Sequence record: LC739536.1
Strand: one strand, 5' to 3'
Length of the DNA stretch: 64,000 bases
From: Escherichia phage phiWec187
Numbering within the stretch: position 1 is the first letter of the stretch; each line of letters opens with the position of its first letter. Positions 8,872 to 58,032 of the stretch are shown here, piece after piece. Below the pieces are notes generated by a model. It was not told the DNA's origin. It was given only the letters and a program-made list of their open reading frames with translations, and searched no databases. A program made the position numbers and the translations under genes.

Positions 8872-8902
8872 CCAAAAATAAAGGGGCTTTCGCCCCTTTT
8901 TT
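8872..8902 (-). terminator. rho-independent terminator, likely bidirectional
   Basis: AGGGGC-TTTC-GCCCCT flanked by T-runs on both strands. Confidence 0.5.
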
Positions 8903-8903
8903 A

Positions 8904-9866
8904 TTAAATTCCAATAACAGTGTTTACACGCTTCTCTTTGCTACGCAAATTAACACGTCCACGAGACAGGCTATTACATGATGTGCATCTTAGCACTTGG
9001 AATGTACTAACCGCTGTTGTGTAAACCTTACCAGGAACAACTTCAAGGTGCTCTTTACCGCAACGAGGACAACGAAGTTTTTCATCGTCATAGAATGCAG
9101 ATACGTTAGGATGTTGTGGAATCCACGCACGAAGTTTGATGTAAAGATCTCTAAGAGAAACAACATCACCATCATTGTATGTTTGCATACGGAAGAAGGC
9201 ATGTCTGTCCCCTTCACAACATGCTTTCCACAAAGGAAAACCTTCATTATCAAGTTTAAAGTTTTCTGTATCAAAATACAAACACATTTCTTTAAGCGCA
9301 TTAGAAGGTAGTGCAAACTGCTTCTTAGCTGCCTTGAGTGTATCAATTACAACATAATGTGATGGTGGCTCCATACCGTGAAAAGCAAAACGTTGGTTAA
9401 TATAAGCCTTATCAAACTTAATACCATTGTGCGCGATCACAATATCTGCATCGTCAAGTAAGTGCCAGAGATCTTGACATAATTCCCAATCATCTGTATG
9501 ATCTATGTCAAACAAAGGGTAATTGCTAAGGTTCTTACCTTCTACTTCCCCTGTTTCTAAGTCAGCAGATGAATAGGAAAGCAAGTAACCTCGACGAATA
9601 ACTTGTTCAGGTGCAATAAAGGCTTTGAAACGTGAGAAGCTATACACAATCTCCGGTGCTGTCTCTACGTCAATAATTTTAATTACTGGCCCACCTTTAT
9701 CTTGCGGAGCACCGCGATGTGGTGAATTTACACGAGCTAAGTAATCATTTACTGTGCTCTTCTTAGTAGAACTTCCCAACACCTCTTGTGCAATCTTACG
9801 CGAAGAATAACCTTGTGCTTTCATAGATACAATCAAGGCTTTCTGTTCGTCTGTTAATTTACTCAA
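8904..9866 (-). CDS. putative DEDD-type 3'-5' exonuclease with N-terminal HTH and C-terminal zinc ribbon
   Basis: IIDVETAP and IAHNGIKFD resemble Exo I/II motifs; CPRCG...CTSCN at C-terminus. Confidence 0.45.
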   Translation of the reverse strand: MSKLTDEQKALIVSMKAQGYSSRKIAQEVLGSSTKKSTVNDYLARVNSPHRGAPQDKGGPVIKIIDVETAPEIVYSFSRFKAFIAPEQVIRRGYLLSYSSADLETGEVEGKNLSNYPLFDIDHTDDWELCQDLWHLLDDADIVIAHNGIKFDKAYINQRFAFHGMEPPSHYVVIDTLKAAKKQFALPSNALKEMCLYFDTENFKLDNEGFPLWKACCEGDRHAFFRMQTYNDGDVVSLRDLYIKLRAWIPQHPNVSAFYDDEKLRCPRCGKEHLEVVPGKVYTTAVSTFQVLRCTSCNSLSRGRVNLRSKEKRVNTVIGI

Positions 9867-10897
9867 TGTTCCTCCTGCTCTGAAATATATGCTTGTAGCA
9901 TACTTTCAAAAGTTGTTTCATCATTCGCCCAACGTTTCATATATACCAACTGAAAAATTGTCTCTATCCATTCATCAGTTGTCATTTCTACTTCTTCACC
10001 ATCCCAAGAAGTAAATTTAACGCCATCTGGGAACCATTCATAATACTGATCTTTAACTGTCTGAAAAAGTTCAGCCTGTGTTTTACATTTGGAAATAAGA
10101 TTAAAGCAAGTAATATCTCCAAACTTAACATCGAAATCTTGGTAAGGTCGAATACTATCTGTCTTATCGCCCATTAGCATTTGATAAGCTAACCAGTAAC
10201 TACCCCAACCCTTAATTTCTTTTTTCTTACCTTTTTCTACGATCCAGATATCACCGATAGATTCATCAATCAGAATAATACAAGGATTTTTATAAACACC
10301 ATCCTCTTTATAAAAGTTAAAGAGTAAACTTGGTGTGTGCAAGCTATCTTTGTCGATAGATGCTACAATATGAGAAAACTTACCAGTTTCCTTGTAGGCT
10401 TTATACCCTGCATATCCATAGATTTCTAAAGCATCGTCTGCCTCAATACCAGTAACAACGTCACCGTTATGTTTTTCAACTAGATAATCTTTAGTATCTG
10501 ATAAATGGATTGGTCTTAAATCTGATCGTTCTGATTTATATTCTTTTGGCATTTTGAAAGAATGCCGGAAGGTTTTTCCTACCCCGATGACACCGCAATA
10601 CTTTTGAAGTTTTAGGTGATCCATCATCTGGGTTATTTTTGTCTTTGCAGCTTGAAACGTAAAAGAAATATTATCTGGGACTATTTGAACATCTTTTATT
10701 TCAAAATCTTCTCTAGAGAACAACTTCTTACCAGCAGCTTCGCGTTGCGCGTTAAGTGCTCCTAACCATCCTCCAATATTTTTTGAAGATTTACCCCAAA
10801 AATCTGTTCTTGTTTCAAACTCTTTTACATTACCGGAAGCCTTGTGTACAGCGTGGATTTTTCTTTGTTCTAAAGCTGAAGACGCTTGGAACGCCAC
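9863..10897 (-). CDS. putative 5'-3' exonuclease / flap endonuclease
   Basis: GIEADDALEIYGYAGY and IVASIDKD match FEN-family signatures. Confidence 0.5.
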   Translation of the reverse strand: MAFQASSALEQRKIHAVHKASGNVKEFETRTDFWGKSSKNIGGWLGALNAQREAAGKKLFSREDFEIKDVQIVPDNISFTFQAAKTKITQMMDHLKLQKYCGVIGVGKTFRHSFKMPKEYKSERSDLRPIHLSDTKDYLVEKHNGDVVTGIEADDALEIYGYAGYKAYKETGKFSHIVASIDKDSLHTPSLLFNFYKEDGVYKNPCIILIDESIGDIWIVEKGKKKEIKGWGSYWLAYQMLMGDKTDSIRPYQDFDVKFGDITCFNLISKCKTQAELFQTVKDQYYEWFPDGVKFTSWDGEEVEMTTDEWIETIFQLVYMKRWANDETTFESMLQAYISEQEEH

Positions 10898-10989
10898 TTG
10901 ATCGTAGTCTATTGCAAGAATTGTGTTCTCGTCAACATATTTGTGCAGGTCTTCCGGTTGGATTAAAATGTAACCGCTAATATTACCTC

Positions 10990-11202
10990 CTATTCATCAT
11001 CTGAACTCTCTGTTGAGAATGTTCGTGTGTATGGACACTGACGACTTGCAGAAACCTCTATAACCTTGTCGTACATACCGTTAGAGTAAAAACAGTATTT
11101 TGTACTTCCAGAAACTTGTTCTCCAGAATTAATTAAAGTTATTTGACCAGCATAAGAATAAGAACTGATTACTAAAAGTAAACCGACAAGAAGTTTTTTC
11201 AT
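10990..11202 (-). CDS. small secreted protein
   Basis: N-terminal signal-peptide-like MKKLLVGLLLVISSYSYA; own promoter upstream. Confidence 0.45.
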   Translation of the reverse strand: MKKLLVGLLLVISSYSYAGQITLINSGEQVSGSTKYCFYSNGMYDKVIEVSASRQCPYTRTFSTESSDDE

Positions 11203-11244
11203 GGTGTGTCTCCTTAAAAGCCCACCTAACTAAGTAGGTAGGCA

Positions 11245-11273
11245 TATTAACACATATTAAATTAGTAAGTCAA
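11245..11273 (-). promoter_or_regulatory. sigma70-like promoter on minus strand
   Basis: Minus strand TTGACT-N17/18-TAATAT upstream of signal-peptide gene. Confidence 0.4.
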
Positions 11274-11276
11274 GTA

Positions 11277-12161
11277 TTATTTTTGAATAGTTGACTTAAT
11301 AAGGTCTTGCATAATACCACGGATTTCATTAAAGCACAGAAGAACAGATGCTTCAAAAGATCCTTCTTCATCGTTAAAGTATTTAGGGAATTTAATACCA
11401 CTCAACTTAAATTCTTTATCAACAATAAAGTTAACGAAACCGTCATATTCCAGGCCAATGGCAACAACGTGCTTACCATCTTCCATAAGTTCTACTGCAC
11501 GAGATTCATAAAGGGATTCTTTACTCCATACAACCACACCTTCCGAATCTTCAAGTTTAATATAATTACCAAGGGTCAGTCGTTCAGCCTCATGTTCTTC
11601 TAAGATGGTATCAAAACCTTTAATAATGGCTTCTTCGTGTACACTAAACGGCAGGACTGGGAAAGTACCCAACACCCCACGAAGAAACACAGCAATATCT
11701 TCACTAATTTTCTTAGTACCATTAAGAACGTAGGTAATACTGTTTTCAGTGTCTACAACAACATAGTTATAGAAATCATCTGCCTCTGTCTCTGGGAGCA
11801 GAGAAAACACGATATCAGCCTCAATTGCTTTTTTACTTTCTTTGTCCAGGAAGAATTCTTTAGTAGGGTTTGCAGCAATAAACTCTTGTTCCATCTCCTG
11901 GAGTTTTTCATTAAGAATGCGTTTAACTTTTTTCTTGTTAACTTTCTTAACAGATTGCCCTACTTTAATAACCTCTAAACCAGAGAACACTTTTACATAG
12001 GAACCATCATCTTCAAAACGAACAAGACCAATGGTATGTGCTTGTTGACCCTGTGCCACAACAAAATCCAGCGGTTTGTCTGTTACTGTGTTCAGTGCGG
12101 AAATAGACAGACCATCACCAGAAATCAGGGTTACGCAAGATTTGAAATTTTTAGCAAACAT
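11277..12161 (-). CDS. hypothetical protein
   Basis: 294-aa ORF; weak N-terminal resemblance MFAKNF to RdgC-type proteins, not relied on. Confidence 0.4.
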   Translation of the reverse strand: MFAKNFKSCVTLISGDGLSISALNTVTDKPLDFVVAQGQQAHTIGLVRFEDDGSYVKVFSGLEVIKVGQSVKKVNKKKVKRILNEKLQEMEQEFIAANPTKEFFLDKESKKAIEADIVFSLLPETEADDFYNYVVVDTENSITYVLNGTKKISEDIAVFLRGVLGTFPVLPFSVHEEAIIKGFDTILEEHEAERLTLGNYIKLEDSEGVVVWSKESLYESRAVELMEDGKHVVAIGLEYDGFVNFIVDKEFKLSGIKFPKYFNDEEGSFEASVLLCFNEIRGIMQDLIKSTIQK

Positions 12162-12171
12162 AGTTTTCTCC

Positions 12172-12450
12172 TCAAATAATAACTACAAAATATTTTACAC
12201 CATCATATTCGACAATATGATCAGGATATTTAAATCCTTTATAAGATTTACCAAACAGACTAACAGCCTCATTAGCTTTGTTTTGCGGATTACTCAGCCA
12301 CTGTTCTTCTGTGTAAAACTTAAACTCTGTTCTCTTACCTTCTTTTTCTAAACCAACAATTTCCTGTGTGATATCTTCAATACCTGCATTCTTCAAGGAT
12401 TTGATTACCTGACGCAAACCGTGTTTAAAGATATCTTCTGCTGTTAACAT
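12172..12450 (-). CDS. hypothetical protein
   Basis: 92-aa ORF. Confidence 0.45.
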   Translation of the reverse strand: MLTAEDIFKHGLRQVIKSLKNAGIEDITQEIVGLEKEGKRTEFKFYTEEQWLSNPQNKANEAVSLFGKSYKGFKYPDHIVEYDGVKYFVVII

Positions 12451-12460
12451 AATACCTCCA

Positions 12461-12480
12461 ATAAGCCCCGAAGGGGCTTT
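12461..12480 (-). other. GC stem-loop in intergenic spacer
   Basis: AGCCCCGAAGGGGCT; no T-run on minus strand. Confidence 0.3.
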
Positions 12481-12485
12481 ATTTC

Positions 12486-13208
12486 TTAAGCAATGATTGC
12501 TGCGATATTAGGTTTAACAAAGGTAGATGGTTTCATAATTTTACCTTTGTCATCAAAGAATACGTACACCTTTTGAACTTCGTTATATACAGCATGTACC
12601 CCAGTATAAGAACCTTCTGCACGATCTTTGCTTCGCATCTCGATAGCATCGCACTCTTTTTCAAGAGCTTCAATAATATCCTTAGTTTCCCAAATAGCTA
12701 GGAGTTGCTTCTTGGTAGGATACTTGGACTCATTGCTATTCAACACTTCACGCATAACCTTCTTCTCGTTATAAACAGAACGCACCAAAGTATCTCGTGC
12801 CATACGGGTAAGTGTAAGAGACATTAAGGCAAATTGCAAGTCATTTTCTACCATTTTATCAAATTCAATGATAACATCGTAAATGTTCTCTGCCAGAACA
12901 TCTCCTGTTGGCATTTCCAGAGCTTTATCAACACCTTCTTTACCAAAGAACATAAACGCCAGGTAGGATGCTACCACAAAAATATCTGCTGCTGCATCAA
13001 GTAATTCAACGTGATCATTTTCCTGTGCTGCTGCTTGAAACTCTTTAAGTTCTTCTCGTACAAAAGAAAGTTGAGCTTCAAACATCTCTTGAGTAAATTC
13101 TGGAGTTACTCCACCGCGTGCCTTAGCATTCCAAGCAACAATTTGATCGGCAGCTTTGATAAAGAAGCTATTGTCCACTTTTACTTGTTTGAAAAAATTC
13201 TCGATCAT
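12486..13208 (-). CDS. putative MazG-like nucleotide pyrophosphohydrolase
   Basis: REELKEFQAAAQENDHVELLDAAADIFVV resembles the MazG EExxE...D helix motif. Confidence 0.4.
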   Translation of the reverse strand: MIENFFKQVKVDNSFFIKAADQIVAWNAKARGGVTPEFTQEMFEAQLSFVREELKEFQAAAQENDHVELLDAAADIFVVASYLAFMFFGKEGVDKALEMPTGDVLAENIYDVIIEFDKMVENDLQFALMSLTLTRMARDTLVRSVYNEKKVMREVLNSNESKYPTKKQLLAIWETKDIIEALEKECDAIEMRSKDRAEGSYTGVHAVYNEVQKVYVFFDDKGKIMKPSTFVKPNIAAIIA

Positions 13209-13217
13209 TGTTTCTCC

Positions 13218-13424
13218 TTATTTAAAATATTGTTCTAACAAAACACTAATGCGAACTACCGATTCGCCCATATACGCCCCAGCACAGAGGAAAACAACAA
13301 ATCTACAAAAATTGCAGTACCATTTGTCCACTGGAAACGAGGCTAACATTATAATTGCAATAGCAATTAACATCATAAGAACTGTTACTAATACCATATT
13401 ACCTCTTACTCTGCTGGTTCCCAA
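13218..13424 (-). CDS. small membrane protein
   Basis: 68 aa with two hydrophobic helices. Confidence 0.4.
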   Translation of the reverse strand: MGTSRVRGNMVLVTVLMMLIAIAIIMLASFPVDKWYCNFCRFVVFLCAGAYMGESVVRISVLLEQYFK

Positions 13425-14569: not shown

Positions 14570-14711
14570 CGTGTAGTCTGCCTAGTTCATAGGCATCATC
14601 AATATTACCACCAGTGTAATCATCCACCATAAAGTAAGGATCTTCACTACTGTTAGGCGCGTTTGCAATTCTCGTTAGTTCTTCAATAAATGTCATAGTT
14701 AACCTTACCAA
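14508..14711 (-). CDS. hypothetical protein
   Basis: 67-aa ORF overlapping neighbours. Confidence 0.3.
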   Translation of the reverse strand: MVRLTMTFIEELTRIANAPNSSEDPYFMVDDYTGGNIDDAYELGRLHGEIEMAKWVLSQLEVKDETN

Positions 14712-14929
14712 TTATACACAAGAGTTTGAATTTCTTCCATCAAATCTTCAAGATCTGTATCAACATATTCAGAAGATGTTGCCATAAAGTATGTAATCAT
14801 TATAAACCCTTCCGAAGAAAGGGCATCAAGGATATCATTAAACATATCTTCCATTTCAGTATTCTCACCAAATGAGAATAACATTTGTTGGTCTTCGCTT
14901 ACACCTTTAACATAGATGGCTGTACTCAT
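14705..14929 (-). CDS. hypothetical protein
   Basis: 74-aa acidic ORF. Confidence 0.4.
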   Translation of the reverse strand: MSTAIYVKGVSEDQQMLFSFGENTEMEDMFNDILDALSSEGFIMITYFMATSSEYVDTDLEDLMEEIQTLVYNW

Positions 14930-14932
14930 ATA

Positions 14933-19638: not shown

Positions 19639-19769
19639 TATTTCCTCCTGTACGGCTCTGTAACGAGCTAATAGCCTCTAAGATATGCAATCACCTTACC
19701 TCACAGTAAAACTCGTTACAATCGTTTTTAGGAGGTTTAGGTTGTACTTAAAAATAATCTAAAAAGGTG

Positions 19770-19798
19770 TTGACAAACGCAAAAAAGTATGCTACCCT
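19770..19798 (+). promoter_or_regulatory. sigma70-like promoter in divergent region
   Basis: TTGACA-N17-TACCCT, followed by GC-rich hairpin. Confidence 0.3.
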
Positions 19799-19979
19799 AA
19801 CCCCCGAAAAACGCCGAGCGCAGCGAGGGGGTGTTATCTAATCTTGTGATACATGATCTAACAGACAACTGAGTAGTCTACATATAGCACTATGTTATGT
19901 CTATAATACTAACATACATACTCTATACTAACAATAGATTCTTTATTAATTTTATTATTAATTAAATAATAAATATCTA

Positions 19980-20008
19980 TTGACTTTAGATCTATCTGTA
20001 TGTAGAGT
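19980..20008 (+). promoter_or_regulatory. sigma70-like promoter for Prs-like gene
   Basis: TTGACT-N17-TAGAGT with AT-rich UP-like tract 19920-19979. Confidence 0.5.
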
Positions 20009-20047
20009 AGAGAACATAAAGTCCTAACTCAACTAAGGAGATAAACA

Positions 20048-20941
20048 ATGAAAGTTAGTATTCTACATGGTGTTGACTGTTATGTTACTGATGTAGACGT
20101 TAAAGTCTTTACATTCTCTGGTGGAGAACAACATGTTCAACTAGATACGAATCTATCAGGTTTCAATCATGCTACAGACAGAATCTTACTCTCTTTAGAA
20201 GTAAGATCTGCTAAAGACTTGATGACTTTGGTTATGACTAAGAATGCATTGGACAATATGCTATATCATAAACCATATTGTGTTGATTTACTCATGCTGT
20301 ATGTACCGTATGCACGACAAGACAGAGTGTGTGAGCCTGGGGAAGCATTCGGAGTTAAAGCCTTTGCTTCTATAATTAATTCATTAAATTTCTCACGTGT
20401 TATCGTTGCTGATCCACATAGTGATGTTACTCCAGCAGTGTTTGACAGACTCTGTGTAATACCTCAAGAAGAGATTGCTTACGAAACTTTAAAGTGGAAG
20501 TTACGTATGGAGAATTTTGCTCTTGTTAGTCCTGATGGTGGTGCTCTTAAGAAAATATTTAAATTATCTAAGAAAATGTCTTTAGATGTGTTCTGTGCAG
20601 AGAAGGTTAGAGATACTGCAACAGGTGCTATTGTTCGTACAGACATTTCTGTACAGGATTTCAATAAGCGTAACCTGATGATCGTAGATGATATCTGTGA
20701 CGGCGGTAGAACTTTTATTGAATTGGCTAAAGTGCTACGTGCTCGTAACGCAGGTAAGATTGAGTTATATGTTACACACGGTATCTTTTCTAAAGGTCTT
20801 AAAGAGTTAAGTGAGCACTTTGACTGCATTCATTCTCTTAATGTGTGGGAAGATAACATCCAAGAAGATTCCGGTGTTCTTGTTAAGAATCAGTCAGATT
20901 TGCAACAACAAATTGTATCTCCATACGTGTGGAATTTTTAA
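20048..20941 (+). CDS. prs: ribose-phosphate pyrophosphokinase family protein (Prs-like)
   Basis: PYARQDR, DPHSD, VSPDGG and DDICDGGRT signatures; consensus promoter and AAGGAG RBS upstream. Confidence 0.8.
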   Translation: MKVSILHGVDCYVTDVDVKVFTFSGGEQHVQLDTNLSGFNHATDRILLSLEVRSAKDLMTLVMTKNALDNMLYHKPYCVDLLMLYVPYARQDRVCEPGEAFGVKAFASIINSLNFSRVIVADPHSDVTPAVFDRLCVIPQEEIAYETLKWKLRMENFALVSPDGGALKKIFKLSKKMSLDVFCAEKVRDTATGAIVRTDISVQDFNKRNLMIVDDICDGGRTFIELAKVLRARNAGKIELYVTHGIFSKGLKELSEHFDCIHSLNVWEDNIQEDSGVLVKNQSDLQQQIVSPYVWNF

Positions 20942-23641: not shown

Positions 23642-23727
23642 GCAAGTGTGGTGGAATTGGTGATACACATTGTGCTTAAAACGCAACGCTTAAATGCTTG
23701 AGGGTTCGAATCCCTCCACTTGCACCA
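23642..23727 (+). tRNA. tRNA-Leu (anticodon TAA), long variable arm
   Basis: 7-bp acceptor, loop CTTAAAA, T-loop GGTTCGAATCC, encoded CCA. Confidence 0.6.
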
Positions 23728-23743
23728 AAACCTAAAAATATCT

Positions 23744-23772
23744 TGACATTTACTTAGTTTTTTGTTATAGTT
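23744..23772 (+). promoter_or_regulatory. sigma70-like promoter within tRNA cluster
   Basis: TTGACA-N17-TATAGT, 10 nt before tRNA at 23783. Confidence 0.5.
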
Positions 23773-23782
23773 ACTATGAAAA

Positions 23783-23864
23783 CGGGGTGTATCTCACCTG
23801 ACTTCTAATCAGGCGTTAACCGAGTAATTGGAGTATGCAGGTTCGAATCCTGTCACCCCGGCCA
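23783..23864 (+). tRNA. atypical tRNA-like gene (possible anticodon TCT)
   Basis: Perfect acceptor and canonical T-arm; stem-loop CCTGA-CTTCTAA-TCAGG; D-arm region too short. Confidence 0.4.
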
Positions 23865-23882
23865 AAAAGTTTTAAAAACTAC

Positions 23883-23911
23883 TTGACAAGCAAGATAGTT
23901 TTATGTTAGAT
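23883..23911 (+). promoter_or_regulatory. sigma70-like promoter within tRNA cluster
   Basis: TTGACA-N17-TTAGAT upstream of tRNA-Ser at 23928. Confidence 0.45.
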
Positions 23912-23927
23912 TTAAAGTATGGTAACA

Positions 23928-24017
23928 GGAAGGTAGGGCGCAGCGGTGCGCAACCAGGTTTGAACCCTGGCCCATTGTAGCGATACGGTGATGGTTCGAC
24001 TCCATTATCTTCCTCCA
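23928..24017 (+). tRNA. tRNA-Ser (anticodon TGA)
   Basis: Anticodon loop TTTGAAC, long variable arm, encoded CCA. Confidence 0.6.
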
Positions 24018-24196
24018 AATTCTCTTAGGAGCTTTATGAATTATAAAACTATTGGACAGGTTGTTACCTGAGTTAAGATTGTAAATAATAAAGTTGTTTA
24101 TGAGTATTCTAATCTTCAACAATCCGAAGATGGTAAGAATATTCGTATGGTAAAAACAGAACAAAAAGATTCCGGTTGTTTTGAATAATTAAAAAC

Positions 24197-24282
24197 GGTA
24201 GATTGGTGAAATGGTAGCCACAACAGTTTGCTAAACTGTCGTCGGAAACGGCGTGTAGGTTCAAGTCCTACATCTACCGCCA
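24197..24282 (+). tRNA. tRNA-Ser (anticodon GCT)
   Basis: Anticodon loop TTGCTAA, variable-arm hairpin, T-loop GGTTCAAGTCC, CCA. Confidence 0.6.
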
Positions 24283-24416
24283 AGTTATCTTTAATGTAGC
24301 TTGTAATCTTACTTTAGCAGAGTAAACTTTCGGCAGATGGTGGCAGCCATTTTACCGATACCCCAATACTTCATAGCTAAGTGCCGCAAACACTGGCTAT
24401 TTTAAAGATAATTTAT

Positions 24417-24492
24417 ACATCGTTAGCTTAGTTGGTAGAGCAAGGTGCTTTTAACTCCAAGGTCGAAGGTTCGAATCCTTCACGATGTACCA
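24417..24492 (+). tRNA. tRNA-Lys (anticodon TTT), tentative
   Basis: D-arm GCTTAGTTGGTAGAGC; loop CTTTTAA with one stem mismatch; CCA. Confidence 0.5.
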
Positions 24493-24497
24493 AACAC

Positions 24498-24584
24498 GTA
24501 GGTATCGCATAGCGGCAATTGCTGGAGACTGTAAATCTCCTGCCCTTCGGGGCTTCGTTGGTTCGAGTCCAACTACCTGCACCA
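24498..24584 (+). tRNA. tRNA-Tyr (anticodon GTA)
   Basis: Anticodon arm GGAGA-CTGTAAA-TCTCC; variable-arm hairpin; CCA. Confidence 0.65.
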
Positions 24585-24591
24585 AATTAAA

Positions 24592-24676
24592 GATGGATTG
24601 GCCTAGTGGTTGGGCGACGGACTGTTAATCCGTGAACGAAAGTTCTAGCAAGGTTCAAATCCTTGATCCATCGCCA
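24592..24676 (+). tRNA. tRNA with anticodon GTT (Asn) and unusually long variable arm
   Basis: Anticodon arm ACGGA-CTGTTAA-TCCGT; 15-nt variable hairpin; T-loop GGTTCAAATCC; CCA. Confidence 0.5.
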
Positions 24677-24680
24677 AATA

Positions 24681-24749
24681 GTGCTTGTAGAGTTAATAGA
24701 AACCTCTAGAATTTTCTAGAATTGTAGGTATCAAATCCTACCAAGCAAA
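24681..24749 (+). ncRNA. degenerate tRNA-like element
   Basis: 6-bp acceptor-like pairing and T-arm-like hairpin but anticodon loop of 6 or 8 nt and no CCA. Confidence 0.25.
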
Positions 24750-24755
24750 TATTTT

Positions 24756-24830
24756 GCTCCTATCGTATAACGGCTATTACGGTTGCCTTGTAAGCAACTT
24801 ATCAGGGTTCGAGTCCTTGTGGGAGCACCA
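24756..24830 (+). tRNA. tRNA-Thr (anticodon TGT)
   Basis: Anticodon arm GTTGC-CTTGTAA-GCAAC; T-loop GGGTTCGAGTCC; CCA. Confidence 0.65.
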
Positions 24831-24852
24831 ATTTAACTCTAAAGGAGTGTAT

Positions 24853-25176
24853 GTGACAGAAAAAGAGTTAGAGAAATATTTTAATATCAATGTTTTCGAT
24901 GGCTTTGATGATATTGAAGATGTTGAAAGATATTATGAAGTAGAGTTAGATAAGGATAACATTGTAATTCTTTCTGCCACTTACGATTGTGCATATTATG
25001 AAGGCGAATCTCACGTTTATTTCTATGATATGAAAACATCTTTGTTTTATGAAGTACACGCATATCATTGTTCTTGCTATGGCTTAGAAGGTCAGTGGGA
25101 ACCTGAAGAAATAGGTGATTTGGACTTTACTATTGCATATCTAAACAGACGTGGTTCATCTACTATTTTAAAATAA
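24853..25176 (+). CDS. hypothetical protein inside tRNA cluster (GTG start)
   Basis: Track start 24754 overlaps tRNA-Thr; AAGGAG at 24842-24847 then GTG at 24853. Confidence 0.4.
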   Translation: MTEKELEKYFNINVFDGFDDIEDVERYYEVELDKDNIVILSATYDCAYYEGESHVYFYDMKTSLFYEVHAYHCSCYGLEGQWEPEEIGDLDFTIAYLNRRGSSTILK

Positions 25177-25190
25177 ATATCAAAAGCCTC

Positions 25191-25220
25191 TTGACAAAGG
25201 GGCTAATAATATGTTAGAGT
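25191..25220 (+). promoter_or_regulatory. sigma70-like promoter within tRNA cluster
   Basis: TTGACA-N17/18-TAGAGT upstream of tRNA-Gly at 25232. Confidence 0.45.
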
Positions 25221-25231
25221 AATATTGTTAA

Positions 25232-25306
25232 GCGGGTATAGTGTTAATGGTAGCATATGAGGTTTCCACCCTCCAGGTGCAGGTTCAAGTCCTGTTACTC
25301 GCTCCA
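25232..25306 (+). tRNA. tRNA-Gly (anticodon TCC)
   Basis: Anticodon loop TTTCCAC; T-loop GGTTCAAGTCC; CCA. Confidence 0.6.
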
Positions 25307-25737
25307 AGATTATTTAAATGGAATCGCTAGAGAAAATTTCTCTTTTCGCTCATGGTTTTCTCCTTCAAACTCTAGCGGTTCTTTTTAAGTGATTTTTTAG
25401 TTTATTGGAGATTCACTTCCTTAGTGTGAGCTAAAATCGAGGAGCCATCGAACTGTCTGATTAATGATTTGCGAATCATTATAGTTTTAAGACCCCGGTA
25501 GTTTTATGGTGTACCTCTTGAATGTGAATGATGACGGGTTTATGGTTATCCTGGTCGTTAAATATCCAAAAACCTATGTTCCCCTTGAGGGCTTGCGCAG
25601 GTAATGCCAATAAGTCCTGCATTTTCATTTAAAAGAGAATTTATAATGGAAAAAGATGAACTTAAGTATGCTAAGCCTCTGGCTTCTGCTGCACGAAAAG
25701 CAGTTCGTCACTTTGTGGTAACACTGAAGTAATTTAT

Positions 25738-25812
25738 TGGAGATTAGCCTAGTGGGAAGGCAACGGCCTTTGAAGTCGTGATGACTAGGTTCGATTCCTA
25801 GATCTCCAGCCA
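25738..25812 (+). tRNA. tRNA-Gln (anticodon TTG)
   Basis: Anticodon arm ACGGC-CTTTGAA-GTCGT; T-loop GGTTCGATTCC; CCA. Confidence 0.65.
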
Positions 25813-25819
25813 AGATTTA

Positions 25820-25895
25820 CAGTGCGTAGCGCAGTTGGTAGCGTGGGAGCCTTGGACGCTTCAGGTCGCAGGTTCGAGTCCTGCCGCACTGACCA
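25820..25895 (+). tRNA. tRNA-Pro (anticodon TGG)
   Basis: C1:G72 acceptor; anticodon loop CTTGGAC; CCA. Confidence 0.65.
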
Positions 25896-25900
25896 AATTT

Positions 25901-25975
25901 GCAGAGATAGCTGAGACGGATTAGTGCTACCCTGAAAAGGTAGAAAGGATGGATCGTTACCATCTCTCTGCACCA
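25901..25975 (+). tRNA. tRNA-Phe (anticodon GAA)
   Basis: Anticodon arm CTACC-CTGAAAA-GGTAG; CCA. Confidence 0.65.
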
Positions 25976-26052
25976 AATAACACCATCCAAGGAGTAGACT
26001 TGGTTAACTGTCAATAGCACATTGAGGCTTCTTACAGTGGTGTACTTATTAT

Positions 26053-26137
26053 GGCTAAGTGGTGGAATGGTATACACGATACGCTTAGAACGTATTGCCC
26101 CAAGGGATTGTGAGTTCGAGTCTCACCTTAGCTACCA
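26053..26137 (+). tRNA. tRNA-Leu (anticodon TAG), long variable arm
   Basis: Anticodon arm ATACG-CTTAGAA-CGTAT; T-loop GAGTTCGAGTCTC; CCA. Confidence 0.65.
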
Positions 26138-26152
26138 AATTATTACAGATTG

Positions 26153-26231
26153 TGCGGGATAGAGGAGTCTGGTCGTCCTCGCCAGTTTCATATGCTGGAG
26201 ATCATCGGTTCGAATCCGATTTCCGCCTCCA
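26153..26231 (+). tRNA. tRNA with anticodon CAT (Met or Ile2), mismatched first acceptor pair
   Basis: Anticodon arm CCAGT-TTCATAT-GCTGG; T-loop GGTTCGAATCC; CCA; 1:72 pair U-C. Confidence 0.5.
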
Positions 26232-26289
26232 ATAAATACCTCCCTTCTGGTGTAATGATTAAATTACATTGACACTTCAAGGAACTCAT

Positions 26290-26372
26290 AGCCGGGTAGA
26301 TTTAAAAGAGTATGGTACTCAATATGGCTCCAAACCATAGATCAGGGGGTTCGATTCCTCACCTTGCTGCCA
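26290..26372 (+). tRNA. atypical tRNA-like gene, possible tRNA-Trp (anticodon CCA)
   Basis: Anticodon arm TATGG-CTCCAAA-CCATA; T-loop GGGTTCGATTCC; CCA; D region too long. Confidence 0.35.
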
Positions 26373-26377
26373 ATTAT

Positions 26378-38876: not shown

Positions 38877-38900
38877 GCAGCGGGGGAAACCCCGCTTATA
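38877..38900 (+). terminator. hairpin after sheath-like gene (weak T tract)
   Basis: AGCGGGG-GAAA-CCCCGCT then TTATAT. Confidence 0.35.
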
Positions 38901-39408: not shown

Positions 39409-39413
39409 CAAAA

Positions 39414-39440
39414 AGGGCAGAAATGCCCTTTATTTTTAAA
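39414..39440 (+). terminator. rho-independent terminator after tube-like gene
   Basis: AGGGCA-GAAA-TGCCCT then TTATTTTT. Confidence 0.5.
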
Positions 39441-42208: not shown

Positions 42209-42215
42209 TGCATAA

Positions 42216-42242
42216 AGCCTCGCTTCGGCGGGGCTTTTTATT
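42216..42242 (+). terminator. rho-independent terminator after tape measure gene
   Basis: GCCTCGC-TTCG-GCGGGGC then TTTTTATTT. Confidence 0.55.
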
Positions 42243-42246
42243 TGTC

Positions 42247-42278
42247 TTGACAAAGAGTTGTTTTTCGTGATAAAATGA
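42247..42278 (+). promoter_or_regulatory. sigma70-like promoter with extended -10
   Basis: TTGACA-N17 then TGATAAAAT after tape-measure terminator. Confidence 0.45.
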
Positions 42279-53050: not shown

Positions 53051-53052
53051 AA

Positions 53053-53682: not shown

Positions 53683-53695
53683 GGAGTTACCCTTA

Positions 53696-54676
53696 ATGGC
53701 AAAGCCACAATACTACCCTGACTGGGCGACACAAACAGTAACCCTCCCAGGAACGGGAAACACAAACAAGATTAGACCAAAAGAAACCATCCGTAATGTT
53801 GGTATGGACTTTGGTCAGATTATGACTTGTGAAGAAATGAACTGGATCTTAAACAATATTGGGTCTTGGATTCGCTATATGCAAGATGAATTCTTCCCAA
53901 CATTGCCTACTACATATCTTCCTATAGTCGGTACTAAAATTACAATGGCAGGTGATGCTACAGGTGAAGTTACATGGAATGGTAATGCTGCTGTAACATT
54001 ATCTATTCAAGTAGTAGATAACAGTCATAATCACTTATCAGCTAACATTACAGACGCAACATCGAACCAAGTTGTAGGAAATGTCCTTGTTAAGCGTGAT
54101 AATGGTGGTGCTATCTATGCAGGTGATATTTACACTTGTGGTACAGGTGCTACAGATCCTGCAACATTATTTTTTAGAAACTATAATGGACAAACAGTAG
54201 GCAATATGTCTTCTGAACCAGGTGCAGGTGGTCAACTCTATATTTATAGAATAAATCCATCTACTGGAGGAACATCTTGTGGAGTCCGTTTGTATGATGC
54301 AGGTTATGTTTTAATAGACAATCCTCGTTCTAATTCTGGTCAAGATACTGGCAATGGTAATGCTCTTGTAAGATTAGATTATCTTAACTCAAGACTAAAC
54401 TCATTGCAAAGTACACTGCAAAATAATATTAACAACGTTAATAGCAACTTGCAAGGCCAAATTAATAACATTAACAATAGAGTTTCTTCTGTTGTGTCTT
54501 CTATCCGTCTAGGTACACGTATTAAAGCTGGTGTATCTGAATCTCCTTTCTATGCTGGTCACGTGATCACAGGTTGGGGTTTTGGTGATAAGAAAGAACT
54601 TCGTGGTGCTTGGTATTGGTCTGCTCCGCTACAATATTACATTAATGGTAGGTGGATAACAGTAACCAACGTTTAG
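53696..54676 (+). CDS. putative tail fibre protein
   Basis: 326 aa with Asn/Gln/Leu-rich coiled-coil and Gly-rich beta region. Confidence 0.4.
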   Translation: MAKPQYYPDWATQTVTLPGTGNTNKIRPKETIRNVGMDFGQIMTCEEMNWILNNIGSWIRYMQDEFFPTLPTTYLPIVGTKITMAGDATGEVTWNGNAAVTLSIQVVDNSHNHLSANITDATSNQVVGNVLVKRDNGGAIYAGDIYTCGTGATDPATLFFRNYNGQTVGNMSSEPGAGGQLYIYRINPSTGGTSCGVRLYDAGYVLIDNPRSNSGQDTGNGNALVRLDYLNSRLNSLQSTLQNNINNVNSNLQGQINNINNRVSSVVSSIRLGTRIKAGVSESPFYAGHVITGWGFGDKKELRGAWYWSAPLQYYINGRWITVTNV

Positions 54677-54688
54677 TAAGGAGAACAC

Positions 54689-55240
54689 ATGAAAAAAGAT
54701 GTTATTTACACTGGCTTTGAACTATATCAACCAGAATTGACAGAAGAAAATGTCATCTATCTTTCAATAGGTGCTGGTTTTCTTAAAGATAAAGATGGTA
54801 ATGATTGGTACGAAATTCAGAAATATTTATCCAAAAATTACCCTGATGCCTATTTCTTAACTCTAGATCACAACAATGTAGTTGTTGCAGCTACGAAAGA
54901 TGTTTCTACATATTTTCCCGCTGGTCTTACTGTTCTTGTAACATACAATGTTCCAGATAAAATAGAAGAAGAAAGCAACCTAGGGTCGTGGAGATATGAC
55001 AATGGTAAGTTTATTTCTCATAATGGGTTTGCAATAGAAGATGCCAACCTTAAAATGGAAAAAGAATTAACTTGGGCCACAAATCAAATATCTGCAATTC
55101 AAGATTTAGAGGAATTACAAGGTTTATCTGAAGAACAAAAAGATTGGTTAGGAAAAGTTAAACTCTATCGTGCAACATTAATTCAAATTAACGTTGAAGA
55201 TGCACCTAATATAACTTGGCCTACAAGACCTAAGAAATAG
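54689..55240 (+). CDS. putative tail fibre assembly protein
   Basis: 183 aa immediately after fibre gene. Confidence 0.35.
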   Translation: MKKDVIYTGFELYQPELTEENVIYLSIGAGFLKDKDGNDWYEIQKYLSKNYPDAYFLTLDHNNVVVAATKDVSTYFPAGLTVLVTYNVPDKIEEESNLGSWRYDNGKFISHNGFAIEDANLKMEKELTWATNQISAIQDLEELQGLSEEQKDWLGKVKLYRATLIQINVEDAPNITWPTRPKK

Positions 55241-55249
55241 GGGCAATGT

Positions 55250-55591
55250 ATGGAGCTAACAGAAGTATGGGATATCGCTAAAGAGGCGATTATCCCTCTT
55301 ATTGGCGTAATCTGGGTGGTCTTCAAACAGAAGATAGATGATATGGCAAGTGATTTGGATAAAATGGAAGACAAATACCGCGAACTAGAAAAGAAGTTGG
55401 TGTTTGTTGAATCCACTTATGCTACCAAAGCAGAACTTGCTCAAATGCTTAACCAGATCAACTCTACATTAATGGCAAATAATACTGCCTTAGAACAGAA
55501 GATTGAAAAAATAATGGATTTAAAAAATGCTCCTGTTCAATTAATGCTAGAGGAGATTACAAAGCGCACACAAAGTAAGGACAAAAATTAA
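55250..55591 (+). CDS. hypothetical membrane-anchored coiled-coil protein
   Basis: 113 aa; N-terminal hydrophobic segment then coiled-coil. Confidence 0.35.
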   Translation: MELTEVWDIAKEAIIPLIGVIWVVFKQKIDDMASDLDKMEDKYRELEKKLVFVESTYATKAELAQMLNQINSTLMANNTALEQKIEKIMDLKNAPVQLMLEEITKRTQSKDKN

Positions 55592-58005
55592 TGGCGAATT
55601 TTCCAACATATCCTGCTACGACACTAGAACAAGGTGTTGATCTGGTTATATTCTCGTCTAACCAGATGCATGATGTTATTAATGGGGATGCTACAGCAAC
55701 TGTAGAAACCGAAACAGGTTTAATACCTACACTGCGTAAAGCACTTGTTGATAACTTCTTCTTTAAGAGTCCTGTTGCTTGGTCAGCAGGATCAACTGAA
55801 ACTGTATTTAACCAGTTACGTTATTTTGAAAACGGTATCTTGAGTGGGTACTATTATGCCCCATCTGCCACTACTGCGAACCCTGTACCTATGCAGGGCA
55901 CACCTGTAGGGGACAGTAACTGGACTCTGTACGCTCTTAAAACTGAACAGTTAGCTTCAGATGTGTATCCTTGGTATTTTAAAGGTGCTACAGGATATGA
56001 AACAGAAATCAGTCCTCCTTATATCTTTGATAATGCTATTGTCACCATTAACGGTGTAATTCAGATTCAAGGTGAAGCATTTACTATCAAAGATAGTAAA
56101 ATTATTCTGGCAGAACCATTAGGTTTAGATCCGTCTACTGGTCTACCTAACAAATTGTTTGCTTTTATTGGTAAAACAACAGCTTCTACTTCTTACGTAG
56201 AGAAAAACCTTTTGTCATCTACTACTGGTGCAGCAATGGTTGGTCTTCCATCTGGAGGCAACCTGTTACAAGCTCAATACTTTGTAACGCCTGAGCAGTT
56301 TGGTGCAATTGGTGATGGAGTTACCGATGATACTCAAGCAATTTTAAAAACTATCACTTTCGCTAACACGAATAACATTCAAGTACGTGCAGATAAGAAT
56401 TATAGATTCACAAGCTCAATTGCTATGTCTGGTATTCGTTGGTATGGTGGTACATTCACTGGTAACGGTGGAACAATGATTTCTACTGTGTCCTGTTGGA
56501 TGGAAAACGTTCGCTTTGAAAAATGTTATGTTAAGATGTTAGGTGGTGATTGCCGATTCTATCGTAATATCTTCTCCAACGCAACATCTACAGCAGCATT
56601 CTTAATGCAAGCAATGACAAGTGAAGGTACGTTGGACTTCAGTTACAACGAAATGTATGGTTGTAAATATGCGATCCTGCAACAAGGTACTGGAGAAGTA
56701 ATGACCTACGGGCGTTACTCTAACAACTATATTCACGATATCAAAGGTGATGCTATTGAACTTAACGTAGTTCAAAAACACTACACTGAAGGTTTGATTA
56801 TCGAGAATAACCACATTGCTAACGTAGATGCTTCTGGACAAGGTGCAAACTGGGGTATTGGTATTGGTGTAGCAGGTAGTGGCCCATATGGTGTTGATGT
56901 TCCTGATTCACAATATGTACGTAATTTCAGTATCGTTGGGAATAGGGTTTACAATTGCCGTCAATGTTTACACGTTGAAATGGGTAAAAACTTCACAATA
57001 CGTGATAATGAAGTTTATCCTAACACAGCAGTTTCAACAGGTACAGGTTTAACTACTTGTGGTGTTGCATTATACGGATGCCAAGATTTTGAAGTTGATG
57101 GTTTAACTGGTTATCTGCTCAATGATCCGTCTGTTTCAACACGTATGGTCTTTATTGACTGGGGTGTTAACAGTGGAAGATATGCGGGGCCACCAATTAA
57201 CTTTACAATTAAGAATTTGGATATTCCAGAATCTTCAATTGAGATTGCAACATCTGGATCAGATGCCTGGGAAAACTCTACAATTGTTAGTAATATCAAT
57301 TGTAATATTTTTAAATGGCGTGGGCTACCATCTAGCTCTACCTTTAATAATATTCGTTGCCGTAGTATTGACTTTATTGGTCAACACGGAAGCGGAGAAG
57401 GAAGTGGTGGCGGTTTCTATACTCGCAGCCAATTCACGTATATGAAGTGGGTAGGATGTACAGCACTTAGCGGAGATGAAACAACAGTTTCTTTTGCTAA
57501 AATCTACACTGATCGTTGCGATCAGGTTGGAAATAACTTTGGTGTTCCAACTGCTGTTGATGGTACAGGTCATCGTGGGCCAGTTTTAACTACTATTTCT
57601 GAACAATATTTTACAGCTTATGATGAATTCCCAGGTGGGCGTGAATTCCCTACTGGAACAGTTATTCATTGTGCAAGCGGTAAAAAACATGTTGTTACAG
57701 TAGGTGGTGCTTTCTTTAGTGACAACGAGAAAATAAAAGCAACTGTTACAGGTCAAACCTATCTACAGTCTAATGCTTTAAACTGGGCTAGTAATGGCTA
57801 CGCTAAAGCAGCAGGTACTAAGATTGTTATTCCAGGTGCAGGTGCAAATGGCGGCGATCTTGTGACAACTATAGCACGTGCTACATATGTGACAAATAGT
57901 TTGTACACAATAGATATTGCAGATCCAATTGTAACACCTACAGCAGAGAATACACAAATTAAAGCTCTGAATCCTGTTACTTTTGTTACTGTCAATAATG
58001 CTTAA
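55591..58005 (+). CDS. tailspike with pectate-lyase-like beta-helix domain
   Basis: FGAIGDGVTDDTQAILKTI is the signature of right-handed beta-helix glycanases in tailspikes. Confidence 0.55.
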   Translation: MANFPTYPATTLEQGVDLVIFSSNQMHDVINGDATATVETETGLIPTLRKALVDNFFFKSPVAWSAGSTETVFNQLRYFENGILSGYYYAPSATTANPVPMQGTPVGDSNWTLYALKTEQLASDVYPWYFKGATGYETEISPPYIFDNAIVTINGVIQIQGEAFTIKDSKIILAEPLGLDPSTGLPNKLFAFIGKTTASTSYVEKNLLSSTTGAAMVGLPSGGNLLQAQYFVTPEQFGAIGDGVTDDTQAILKTITFANTNNIQVRADKNYRFTSSIAMSGIRWYGGTFTGNGGTMISTVSCWMENVRFEKCYVKMLGGDCRFYRNIFSNATSTAAFLMQAMTSEGTLDFSYNEMYGCKYAILQQGTGEVMTYGRYSNNYIHDIKGDAIELNVVQKHYTEGLIIENNHIANVDASGQGANWGIGIGVAGSGPYGVDVPDSQYVRNFSIVGNRVYNCRQCLHVEMGKNFTIRDNEVYPNTAVSTGTGLTTCGVALYGCQDFEVDGLTGYLLNDPSVSTRMVFIDWGVNSGRYAGPPINFTIKNLDIPESSIEIATSGSDAWENSTIVSNINCNIFKWRGLPSSSTFNNIRCRSIDFIGQHGSGEGSGGGFYTRSQFTYMKWVGCTALSGDETTVSFAKIYTDRCDQVGNNFGVPTAVDGTGHRGPVLTTISEQYFTAYDEFPGGREFPTGTVIHCASGKKHVVTVGGAFFSDNEKIKATVTGQTYLQSNALNWASNGYAKAAGTKIVIPGAGANGGDLVTTIARATYVTNSLYTIDIADPIVTPTAENTQIKALNPVTFVTVNNA

Positions 58006-58008
58006 TTA

Positions 58009-58032
58009 AAAAGGGGCGAAAGCCCCTTTATA
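58009..58032 (+). terminator. hairpin terminator after tailspike gene
   Basis: AAAAAGGGGCGAAAGCCCCTTTAT; same sequence as the 8881-8900 hairpin on the opposite strand. Confidence 0.45.

Follow-up and report, generated by a model that had tools for sequence, protein, structure and literature searches.

Stable GC-rich hairpins placed after stop codons, two of them identical, are probable terminator/attenuator elements of a phi92-like phage

The GC stem-loops dispersed along the genome of Escherichia phage phiWec187 most probably act as terminator or attenuator hairpins that punctuate operons and also protect the upstream message. As such, they would belong to an established class, that of Rho-independent terminator/attenuator and 3'-protective hairpins. 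The DNA analyzed here (the window) is a 64,000-nt stretch of a phi92-like myophage (Justusliebigvirus; LC739536.1) that is 99.1 to 99.3% identical to phage inny. All nine GC stem-loops listed in the initial annotation (at 2483, 8882, 12463, 38877, 39414, 42216, 58013, 60012, and 62875) were confirmed, and additional hairpins absent from that list were identified at 5480, 7689, 26566, 26960, 30099, and 34865. With a perfect hairpin defined as a stem of at least 6 bp that includes at least 4 G-C pairs, perfect GC hairpins are ~4-fold more common in the window than expected (26 versus 7.0 in block shuffles), which bears out the earlier description of the genome as "punctuated" by such structures. 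Twelve of the 26 are located in the 7.4% of the DNA that lies outside ORFs (P ~8e-9), a count that rises to 13 when the inny annotation is used to correct the gene start at 2469.

Two of these hairpins, hereafter copies A and B, share the same sequence. Exact matches to AAAAGGGGCGAAAGCCCCTT were found at two sites within the window, 8881 to 8900 on the minus strand and 58009 to 58028 on the plus strand; no third site with up to 3 mismatches was detected in the window, and 100 shuffles yielded 0 matches. The identity, first put at roughly 20 nt, extends to 24 nt, AAAAAGGGGCGAAAGCCCCTTTAT, in an exact-repeat search (8878 to 8901, minus strand; 58008 to 58031, plus strand). Over 8878 to 8907 and 58002 to 58031, the copies match at 29 of 30 positions, TAA stop codon included, and the window contains no longer inverted repeat. 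Given this length and the absence of matches in the shuffles, a chance origin of the identity was rejected. The layout is common to both sites: a stop codon, 4 nt, AAAGGGGC-GAAA-GCCCCTTT, a ribosome-binding site, and the next start, which lies 9 to 18 nt beyond the copy. The stem consists of 8 bp, including 5 G-C pairs, and carries a GAAA loop; the intergenic spaces are 39 nt (copy A) and 41 nt (copy B). According to both GC skew and ORFs, gene direction switches near 20 kb, from the minus strand on the left to the plus strand on the right. As the two blocks of genes diverge in transcription, copies A and B are both in the sense orientation, with GAAA in the mRNA of each. Thus, the location of the two hairpins on opposite strands, which had been singled out at the outset, is correct for the DNA but has no special meaning, since divergent transcription accounts for it.

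Copy A (8878 to 8901, minus strand; stem proper, 8880 to 8899) reads AAAAA-GGGGC-GAAA-GCCCC-UUUAU in the sense RNA. Upstream of it is the gene for a DNA polymerase 3'-5' exonuclease (pol-exo) subunit, Phi92_gp084 (8904 to 9866, minus strand), identified by PHROG 403 (E 6e-108), Pfam RNase_H_2, and the annotation of phage Paula; its TAA, at 8906 to 8904, is 4 nt from the stem. On the 3' side of the stem come UUUUUGG (the U-tract), GGAGG (the ribosome-binding site), and the AUG at 8864 of Phi92_gp083 (8463 to 8864, minus strand), a gene with no assigned function that is kept at this site in most relatives. The candidacy of gp083 as a mobile HNH endonuclease was rejected, given that it has no Pfam match and that its PHROG is one of unknown function. 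The U-tract of copy A is good (UUUAUUUUU), the terminator scan flags the copy on the minus strand, and the Paula GenBank record (LR865361.1) places terminator_042/043 at this site. The predicted folding energy is -15.4 kcal/mol for the sense strand versus -13.0 for the antisense strand (z -2.7, shuffle test).

Copy B (58008 to 58031, plus strand; stem proper, 58010 to 58029) is the same 24-mer, located between the genes for the colanidase tailspike, Phi92_gp150 (55591 to 58005, plus strand), and a tail fiber with a collagen-like repeat, Phi92_gp151 (58047 to 60008, plus strand). The TAA of the tailspike gene, at 58003 to 58005, again lies 4 nt from the stem, and the 3' side holds AAAAGGAG, with the ribosome-binding site, followed by GUG at 58047. 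The U-tract in the sense direction is poor (UUUAUAAAA), with just UUUAU ahead of an A-run; the terminator scan flagged neither strand at copy B, and the Paula record has terminator_032 at this site on the antisense strand only. The fold is nevertheless stable, at -16.8 kcal/mol sense versus -14.0 antisense (z -3.4, shuffle test).

Many of the other hairpins in the window likewise follow genes. A diverged relative of the shared hairpin (39410 to 39437, plus strand) follows the tail-tube gene and reads AAAAA-GGGCA-GAAA-UGCCC-UUUAUUUUU, with a good U-tract (z -4.2; Paula terminator_035/036); it is identical to copy A at 24 of 28 positions, and the four differences amount to two compensatory base-pair swaps. 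A 13-bp hairpin with a U-tract (34865 to 34895, plus strand; -18.7 kcal/mol, z -3.3; Paula terminator_037) follows the major capsid protein gene, and AAAGCCUCGC-UUCG-GCGGGGCUUU with a U-tract (42214 to 42237, plus strand; z -3.5; Paula terminator_034) follows the tape-measure gene. After the tail-sheath gene, AGCGGGG-GAAA-CCCCGCU (38879 to 38896, plus strand; z -3.3) has a sense GAAA loop and a weak or absent U-tract. The tRNA cluster ends with AGCCUCC-UUAUC-GGAGGCU and UUUU (26566 to 26584, plus strand). The late operon ends, between convergent genes, with the 10-bp hairpin AAAAGGAGCC-AUUA-GGCUCCUUUU (62871 to 62894; z -4.0; Paula terminator_029-031), which looks like a bidirectional terminator. 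The hairpin after the nrdA-like ribonucleotide reductase gene, GGGGGC-UUUG(U)-(C)CCCCC (2485 to 2503, minus strand), is weak by the shuffle test (z -1.0). Two intergenic hairpins lack a U-tract: AGGAGAGC-UAU-GCUCUCCU (5480 to 5498, minus strand), after the thymidylate synthase gene, and CGCUCCCA-CAAA-UGGGAGCG (7689 to 7708, minus strand), before the thymidine kinase gene. Because several members (5480, 7689, and 38879) are without a U-tract, the hairpin family appears to be functionally mixed. A known RNA family was rejected as an explanation: Rfam covariance models at the gathering threshold gave 14 matches in the window, all of them to tRNAs and none coinciding with a hairpin.

At some sites, the loop differs between close relatives, taking the form UUCG, UUCU, or UUC. 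The hairpin after the gp089 gene, AAGCCCC-UUC-GGGGCUU (12463 to 12479, minus strand; Paula terminator_041), has the loop UUC in the window, UUCG in inny, and UUCU in Paula. The hairpin after the tail fiber gp151 gene, AAGCCCC-UUCU-GGGGCUU (60012 to 60029, plus strand), has an identical stem, with UUCU in the window and UUCG in both inny and Paula.

The core 18-mer of the shared hairpin recurs elsewhere in the genome, as anticipated: the complete genomes of inny and Paula each contain five copies, all in sense and 3 to 9 nt after stop codons, in Sir2-like, lysozyme/PhoH, pol-exo, tailspike, and DNA polymerase gene contexts. The five copies have in common an A-run, the core, and a T-run, with no further homology in the flanks; their U-tracts are good in two cases, moderate in one, and weak in two. 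The copies show no variation among the window, inny, and Paula, in contrast to other hairpins, whose loops do differ among these 99%-identical genomes. Among the post-stop tetraloop hairpins of inny, 14 of 21 have GNRA or UNCG loops in the sense strand versus 1 in the antisense strand (P ~1e-3 for the strand asymmetry; 2e-14 against loop chance). This 14:1 sense bias points to a role at the RNA level, and both A and B possess the extra-stable tetraloop C-GAAA-G in sense. Five identical copies among 31 tetraloop hairpins, compared with an estimated background of 1 in ~262, correspond to P ~1e-7; a uniform design space was rejected as the source of the five copies because P is ~4e-4 even at a 2% background. 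Popularity of the design alone is therefore not a full account of the reuse, which is far above the estimated background. Other hairpins in inny are reused two or three times as well.

The presence of a hairpin is better conserved than its sequence. The Sir2 and pol-exo site copies are orthologous between lineages with 78% amino acid identity and have an identical core; for these two, simple inheritance under purifying selection is a sufficient explanation. Across orthologous pol-exo sites (n = 16), six different hairpins were found, all starting 4 to 9 nt after the stop codon, with energies of -13 to -17 kcal/mol and GAAA, GGAA, UUCG, or UUAUU loops. One of these, AAACCCGC-TTCG-GCGGGTTT, occupies the pol-exo site in lineages L011 and L012 and two other sites in inny; in lineage L013, the GGGGC-GAAA hairpin follows an ATPase gene, where inny carries another hairpin. 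In other genera, a hairpin is kept at both orthologous sites, with different sequences. For example, a DNA search identified GGGAGC-AUUU-GCUCCC at site B of Citrobacter phage Tr1; the protein search for site B orthologues returned near-identical relatives and unrelated fiber fragments only.

Unrelated phages and bacteria frequently carry the GGGGC-GAAA-GCCCC design as well. The shared 18-mer is present in unrelated viral contigs (at least 120) and in cellular genomes (at least 120) from many phyla, archaea included. Among the matches listed, 104 of 112 unrelated viral instances are directly after the end of an ORF, and elsewhere the 18-mer is mostly between convergent genes.

From where these hairpins lie, their orientation and stability, the conservation of their structure, and their recurrence, we infer that they terminate transcription, with some level of read-through, and protect RNA. 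Matches to sigma-70-like promoters in the window showed no enrichment over shuffles, so the use of host RNA polymerase throughout infection is an assumption. Under it, host RNA polymerase would stop or attenuate at Rho-independent hairpins, each situated a few nucleotides past a stop codon and just before the ribosome-binding site that serves the next gene, and the 3'-terminal hairpin would shield the upstream message from 3'-exonucleases. Copy A, between pol-exo and gp083, would combine the full hairpin and U-tract anatomy. Copy B, between tailspike and tail fiber, is likelier to be a weak attenuator or a stability/processing barrier than an efficient stop because its U-tract is poor; judged by its sequence, "terminator" would be a weaker label for it than "attenuator or 3'-stabilizing hairpin." The identity of A and B would then result from the repeated use, by this lineage, of one small hairpin of great stability, in which an A-run and GGGGC lead into a GAAA loop with a closing C-G pair, followed by GCCCC and a U-run. 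The initial proposal of a reused terminator module or RNA stability element is supported by the post-stop position (4 nt after a stop codon in both copies), sense orientation, C(GAAA)G loop, five copies, retention of hairpins in relatives, and Paula annotation, but the terminator part is not supported by the U-tract of copy B. A literature search for published transcript maps of Justusliebigvirus found none.

In E. coli and its phages, including the rV5-like and phi92-like phages for which they have been predicted, the stems of Rho-independent terminators are GC-rich and 5 to 8 bp long. Copies A and B resemble such terminators in having a GC-rich stem with a 4-nt loop and a preceding A-run, and in being located just past a stop codon and co-oriented with the gene; Paula annotates both. 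The U-run that follows the stem is good in copy A, but copy B, like several other hairpins, has a weak or absent sense U-tract. For rV5-like phages, sigma-70-type promoters and Rho-independent terminators have been described, with 20 such terminators in rV5 (PMC3606486). Hairpins with UUCG and GAAA tetraloops have been described as terminators (PMC3972237), and extra-stable C(UUCG)G and GNRA hairpins occur in intercistronic regions of phage T4 and in terminators of E. coli (Tuerk et al. 1988 and d'Aubenton Carafa et al. 1990, as cited in PMC3972237). The phi92-like hairpins share with these the C-GAAA-G and C-UUCG-G loops, the short G/C stems, the location between cistrons, and the bias toward the transcribed strand; nothing of substance differs, and the phi92-like phage is another example.

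Of the other explanations, a single origin of the identical copies, through copying of a terminator cassette between intergenic sites or homogenization by short-patch recombination, is unlikely. Five identical 18-mers in a 147-kb genome against the background given above, the extension of the A/B match through the stop codon, the multiple use of other inny hairpins, and the occupation of differing sites by the same hairpin types across lineages (L011/L012 and L013 versus inny) are all in its favor. However, the flank homology is limited to low-complexity A/T runs, the identical 18-mer is spread across many phyla, and 14 to 24 nt is short for recombination. It is similarly improbable that the reused hairpins constitute a "house" terminator set, renewed through the replacement of cassettes and not through point mutation, or a sequence read by a specific factor. 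The small dispersed repeat envisaged in the initial annotation was rejected in the sense of a homologous or mobile (MITE/REP-like) element: no homology extends past 30 nt, the flanks have in common nothing other than the stop codon and the A- and T-runs, and the 18-mer is not confined to this lineage.

It is quite unlikely that the hairpins, and especially copy B, have no terminator activity at all and serve as elements of mRNA stability or processing. An endonuclease, for example, RNase E, would cut the AU-rich stretch 3' of the stem, and the hairpin would block 3'-exonucleases, leaving the upstream and downstream cistrons at unequal steady-state levels. The missing U-tracts at copy B, at the fifth core copy (before the DNA polymerase gene), and at 5480, 7689, and 38879 fit this mechanism, as do the failure of the scan to flag copy B and the AU-rich single-stranded segments 3' of the stems; the tetraloop bias suits any RNA-level role. 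Conversely, canonical U-tracts are present at copy A and at 34865, 39412, 42214, 26566, and 62871, and the prevalence of the 18-mer between convergent genes, among the matches listed, is terminator-like. The two roles are compatible with each other.

A very unlikely alternative is that exact GGGGC-GAAA-GCCCC is a binding or cleavage site of a phage or host protein, defining a five-transcript regulon. The invariance of the five copies in the window, inny, and Paula while other loops vary, together with the identical core at two orthologous sites in the more distant lineage, is compatible with such a site; against it, other lineages place unrelated stems and UUCG loops at the same site, no function is shared by the gene pairs flanking the five copies, and the sequence is widespread in unrelated organisms.

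Finally, it is extremely unlikely that the hairpins are cassettes like the PeSLs (promoter-early stem-loops) of T4-type phages (PMC2839356, PMC4122927) or recombination hot spots for module shuffling or inversion of the 49-kb segment: although T4-type PeSLs hold polyG/polyC stem-loops that function as terminators and bring about shuffling (PMC2839356), copy B is among tail-fiber genes that are mosaic in the phi92-like group, and a near-consensus extended -10 promoter, a strong promoter-like site, lies 3' of the 42214 hairpin (42247 to 42276), the short intergenic spaces leave no room for a promoter, no promoter-like match adjoins A or B, the adjoining genes are conserved core genes rather than ORFans, and the relatives are collinear in a single aligned piece across copy A (55 of 56) and copy B (54 of 56), with no inversion or breakpoint at either hairpin among the 56. 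Recombination or inversion between A and B, or module junctions there, is thereby largely refuted. The likeness to PeSLs consists of repeated intergenic stem-loops with G- and C-runs, of the terminator/attenuator type and in several copies per genome; unlike PeSLs, A and B have no sigma-70 promoter, lie outside hyperplastic ORFan regions, and do not form recombination junctions. In inny, a better PeSL candidate is a distinct family of hairpins in the early region (127 to 136 kb, beyond the window).

Bacterial repeats that double as terminators include REP/BIME elements and the paired uptake sequences of Neisseria and Haemophilus, families whose copies number from tens to thousands and which have a sequence-specific partner, either a transposase or an uptake receptor. 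The phi92-like hairpins are similarly identical short inverted repeats reused after genes, but they number five, have no known partner, and are substituted by other hairpins in relatives.

The identification of these hairpins as probable terminators or attenuators is of value chiefly for annotation, by marking likely transcription unit ends or attenuation points after the capsid, sheath, tube, tape-measure, tailspike, and fiber genes and several replication genes. The sense-strand bias of GNRA/UUCG loops offers a simple, sequence-only test for whether a palindrome acts as RNA rather than DNA. There is no new kind of system here; the 5-fold reuse and the lineage-specific assignment of hairpins to sites hint at terminator turnover, a modest question. 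The map may also be of use in engineering phi92-like therapeutic phages, for example, in swapping tail-fiber modules without upsetting expression.

An exact-repeat search confirmed that the hairpin placed on opposite strands by the initial annotation is shared: its 20-mer occurs exactly twice in the window and never in shuffled sequences. The exact sequence common to both copies is 24 nt long (AAAAAGGGGCGAAAGCCCCTTTAT; copy A, 8878-8901, minus strand; copy B, 58008-58031, plus strand); the match grows to 30 nt with 1 mismatch, TAA stop codon included, and the pair is the longest inverted repeat of the window. Copy A occupies a 39-nt intergenic space on the minus strand between gp084 (8904-9866), which encodes the DNA polymerase 3'-5' exonuclease subunit (pol-exo), and the downstream gp083, and reads, in transcript direction, ...AUU UAA U AAAAAA GGGGC GAAA GCCCC UUUAUUUUU GGAGG AUUU AUG. 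Copy B occupies a 41-nt space on the plus strand between the colanidase tailspike gene gp150 and the downstream tail fibre gene gp151, and reads ...GCU UAA UU AAAAA GGGGC GAAA GCCCC UUUAUAAA AGGAG UAGUAAA GUG. Along transcription, the layout of the two copies is the same, with an 8-bp stem 4 nt past the stop codon and GAAA as the mRNA loop; they lie on opposite DNA strands because transcription is divergent. In the sense direction, copies A and B fold at -15.4 and -16.8 kcal/mol, against -13.0 and -14.0 kcal/mol in antisense, a gain in stability of ∼2.4-2.8 kcal/mol. Downstream of copy B, gp151 contains 9-nt periodic repeats (AAAGGNGAN, 58881-59401) that encode a collagen-like Gly-X-Y segment (Pfam Collagen match).

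Pieces of the window of 2 kb and 24 kb match ∼55 complete phi92-like myophage genomes (genus Justusliebigvirus, subfamily Stephanstirmvirinae) at 95-99% identity. The closest relative is Escherichia phage inny (MN850601.1; 99.1-99.3% identity), position 19943 of which corresponds to window position 1; its complete genome and that of phage Paula (LR865361.1) were used for comparison. Over 24 kb, four "Campylobacter phage" records with C. jejuni as host (MG065639, MG065645, MG065656, and MG065689) share ∼97-98% identity with this group of E. coli phages, and their host attribution looks doubtful. The GC skew of the window changes sign at ∼20 kb, with minus-strand ORFs to the left and plus-strand ORFs to the right. 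The strand switch (19640-20050) is a divergent intergenic promoter region of ∼400 bp (∼19.65-20.05 kb). Within it lie several TTGACA/TTGACT boxes, an AT-rich stretch, and, at 19800-19830, a GC-rich patch; in inny, a repeat_region is annotated in the equivalent region.

The hairpin core, an 18-mer (AAGGGGCGAAAGCCCCTT), is present in five copies in both Paula and inny, two of which fall in the window. In inny, these lie between a Sir2-like gene and gp037 (4448), a lysozyme-like gene and PhoH (15734), pol-exo and gp083 (28822, copy A), the tailspike and tail fibre genes (78042, copy B), and gp160 and the DNA polymerase gene (88901, the fifth copy). Each of the five is sense-oriented and located 3-9 nt past a stop codon, and in four a ribosome-binding site follows within a few nucleotides; comparison of the five flanks revealed no shared sequence beyond the A-run and the T-run. 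After the tail-tube gene lies a sixth, diverged member (39410-39437), which matches copy A at 24/28 positions and shares its loop and UUUAUUUUU tail; the four mismatches amount to two compensatory base-pair swaps. Other hairpins are reused in inny as well, namely AAACCCGC-TTCG-GCGGGTTT (twice), AAGCCCC-TTCG-GGGGCTT (twice), and two early-region families. The AAGCCCC/GGGGCTT stem forms a second same-stem pair in the window (12463-12479, minus strand, and 60012-60029, plus strand; 47.5 kb apart, both sense), with loops TTC and TTCT, respectively, compared with TTCG and TTCG in inny and TTCT and TTCG in Paula. The DNA polymerase is split, with the exonuclease-subunit gene (window 8904-9866) located ∼57 kb from the polymerase gene (inny 86251-88830), and GAAA hairpin copies adjoin both halves.

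All nine GC stem-loops cited initially fold as such, and the described richness of the genome in these structures is borne out. Perfect hairpins (stem of ≥6 bp, ≥4 G-C pairs, loop of 3-8) number 26 in the window versus 7.0 in shuffled sequences, and 73 versus 14.1 in the whole inny genome, 42 of them intergenic. Twelve of the 26 (13 after one gene-start correction) are outside ORFs, in 7.4% of the sequence (P ∼8e-9). The feature is real and statistically solid.

In a perfect palindrome, the loop alone tells the strands apart, and loop asymmetry is therefore informative on whether an element acts as RNA or DNA. Among 21 inny tetraloop hairpins located ≤150 nt past a stop codon, with unambiguous gene direction, a GNRA or UNCG loop is on the mRNA strand in 14 and on the opposite strand in 1 (chance, 4.7% per strand; P ∼1e-3 for the asymmetry). 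In the window, the sense-to-antisense count is 5:0 (GAAA at 8880, 38879, 39412, and 58010; UUCG at 42214). This strand bias speaks for selection on the elements at the RNA level.

The orthologous sites were compared among relatives. For the pol-exo gene, 15 relatives from metagenomes (74-100% amino acid identity) were compared, and in every one a hairpin starts 4-9 nt past the stop, with fold energies of -13 to -17 kcal/mol. Together with the window, these sites display six hairpin sequences: GGGGC-GAAA-GCCCC, GGGGC-GGAA-GCCCC, GGGGC-UUCG-GCCCC, CCCGC-UUCG-GCGGG, GAGGGC-UUCG-GCCCUC, and GGGAGC-UUAUU-GCUCCC. At the tailspike site, Citrobacter phage Tr1 (same subfamily, other genus) carries GGGAGC-AUUU-GCUCCC 13 nt past the stop, followed by a ribosome-binding site. 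Therefore, place and structure are conserved, and sequence is not. At closer range, the five or six GAAA hairpins are identical among the window, inny, and Paula; the AAGCCCC-loop-GGGGCUU hairpins (12463 and 60012) vary in the loop (UUCG, UUCU, or UUC). One lineage at 78% amino acid identity keeps the 18-mer at two orthologous sites, those of Sir2 and pol-exo, and also carries it after an ATPase gene, where inny has another hairpin. Such assignment of hairpin types to different sites in different lineages would fit physical copying between sites as the source of the five-fold identity, an improbable alternative to a single optimum having been selected repeatedly. The replacement of the hairpin by unrelated ones in relatives makes a sequence-specific protein site unlikely. 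A recombination cassette resembling the promoter-early stem-loops (PeSL) of T4-type phages (PMC2839356) is excluded for copies A and B, where a promoter, an ORFan context, and breakpoints are all absent. Outside the window, the inny early region (127.4-136.5 kb), with its small ORFs, has its own repeated hairpins 41-50 nt past stop codons (GGCGGGAAA-TGG-TTTCCCGCC, three times, plus variants; GCGGCA-ATAG-TGCCGC, three times), which are possible PeSL-like candidates.

The 18-mer was found in at least 120 IMG/VR contig stretches and at least 120 GTDB genome stretches, the cellular matches listed including Gammaproteobacteria, Bacteroidota, Firmicutes, Ignavibacteria, and archaea. Among the viral matches listed that are unrelated to inny, 104 of 112 are directly 3' of an ORF end (58 between convergent genes, 31 sense only, and 15 antisense only). 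This spread and position mark a terminator design in wide use. The missing flank homology and the cross-phylum distribution exclude a dispersed repeat, the other initial proposal, as well as a mobile one; the main initial reading, a reused terminator module, is supported as the probable one. Of the other tetraloop GC hairpins in the ∼1.8 Mb of retrieved loci, 1 in ∼262 has the core, versus 5 of 31 in inny (P ∼1e-7; 4e-4 if the background were 2%), and the core is therefore over-used by the phi92-like lineage of inny.

Proper U-tracts follow copy A and the hairpins at 26566, 34865, 39412, 42214, and 62871; these hairpins are located after genes for abundant proteins (such as the capsid, tube, and tape measure) or at an operon end. 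The hairpin at 26566-26584 closes a cluster of 14 tRNA genes (23642-26450, plus strand; Rfam). Ten nucleotides past the post-tape-measure hairpin comes an extended -10 promoter close to consensus (TTGACA-18-TAAAAT with TG, 11/12), which makes this region (42214-42276) a terminator-promoter junction within the tail operon. At 30058-30120, a promoter-like TTGACA-18-TAAAGT with TG precedes a hairpin (30099-30120) and an ORF (30152-31720), and this hairpin looks more like a 5'-UTR stem-loop than a terminator. No good U-tract follows copy B, the fifth copy, or the hairpins at 5480, 7689, and 38879, which are more likely weak attenuators or stability or processing barriers.

The literature describes hairpins with UUCG and GAAA tetraloops as intercistronic elements of T4 and as terminators in bacteria (PMC3972237), and Paula's depositors annotated 43 terminators, including those at the pol-exo and tailspike sites. 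The feature is of a well-known kind, already annotated in the public record of a close relative. The best-supported reading is that these are predicted Rho-independent terminator or attenuator hairpins that would double as protective 3' structures.
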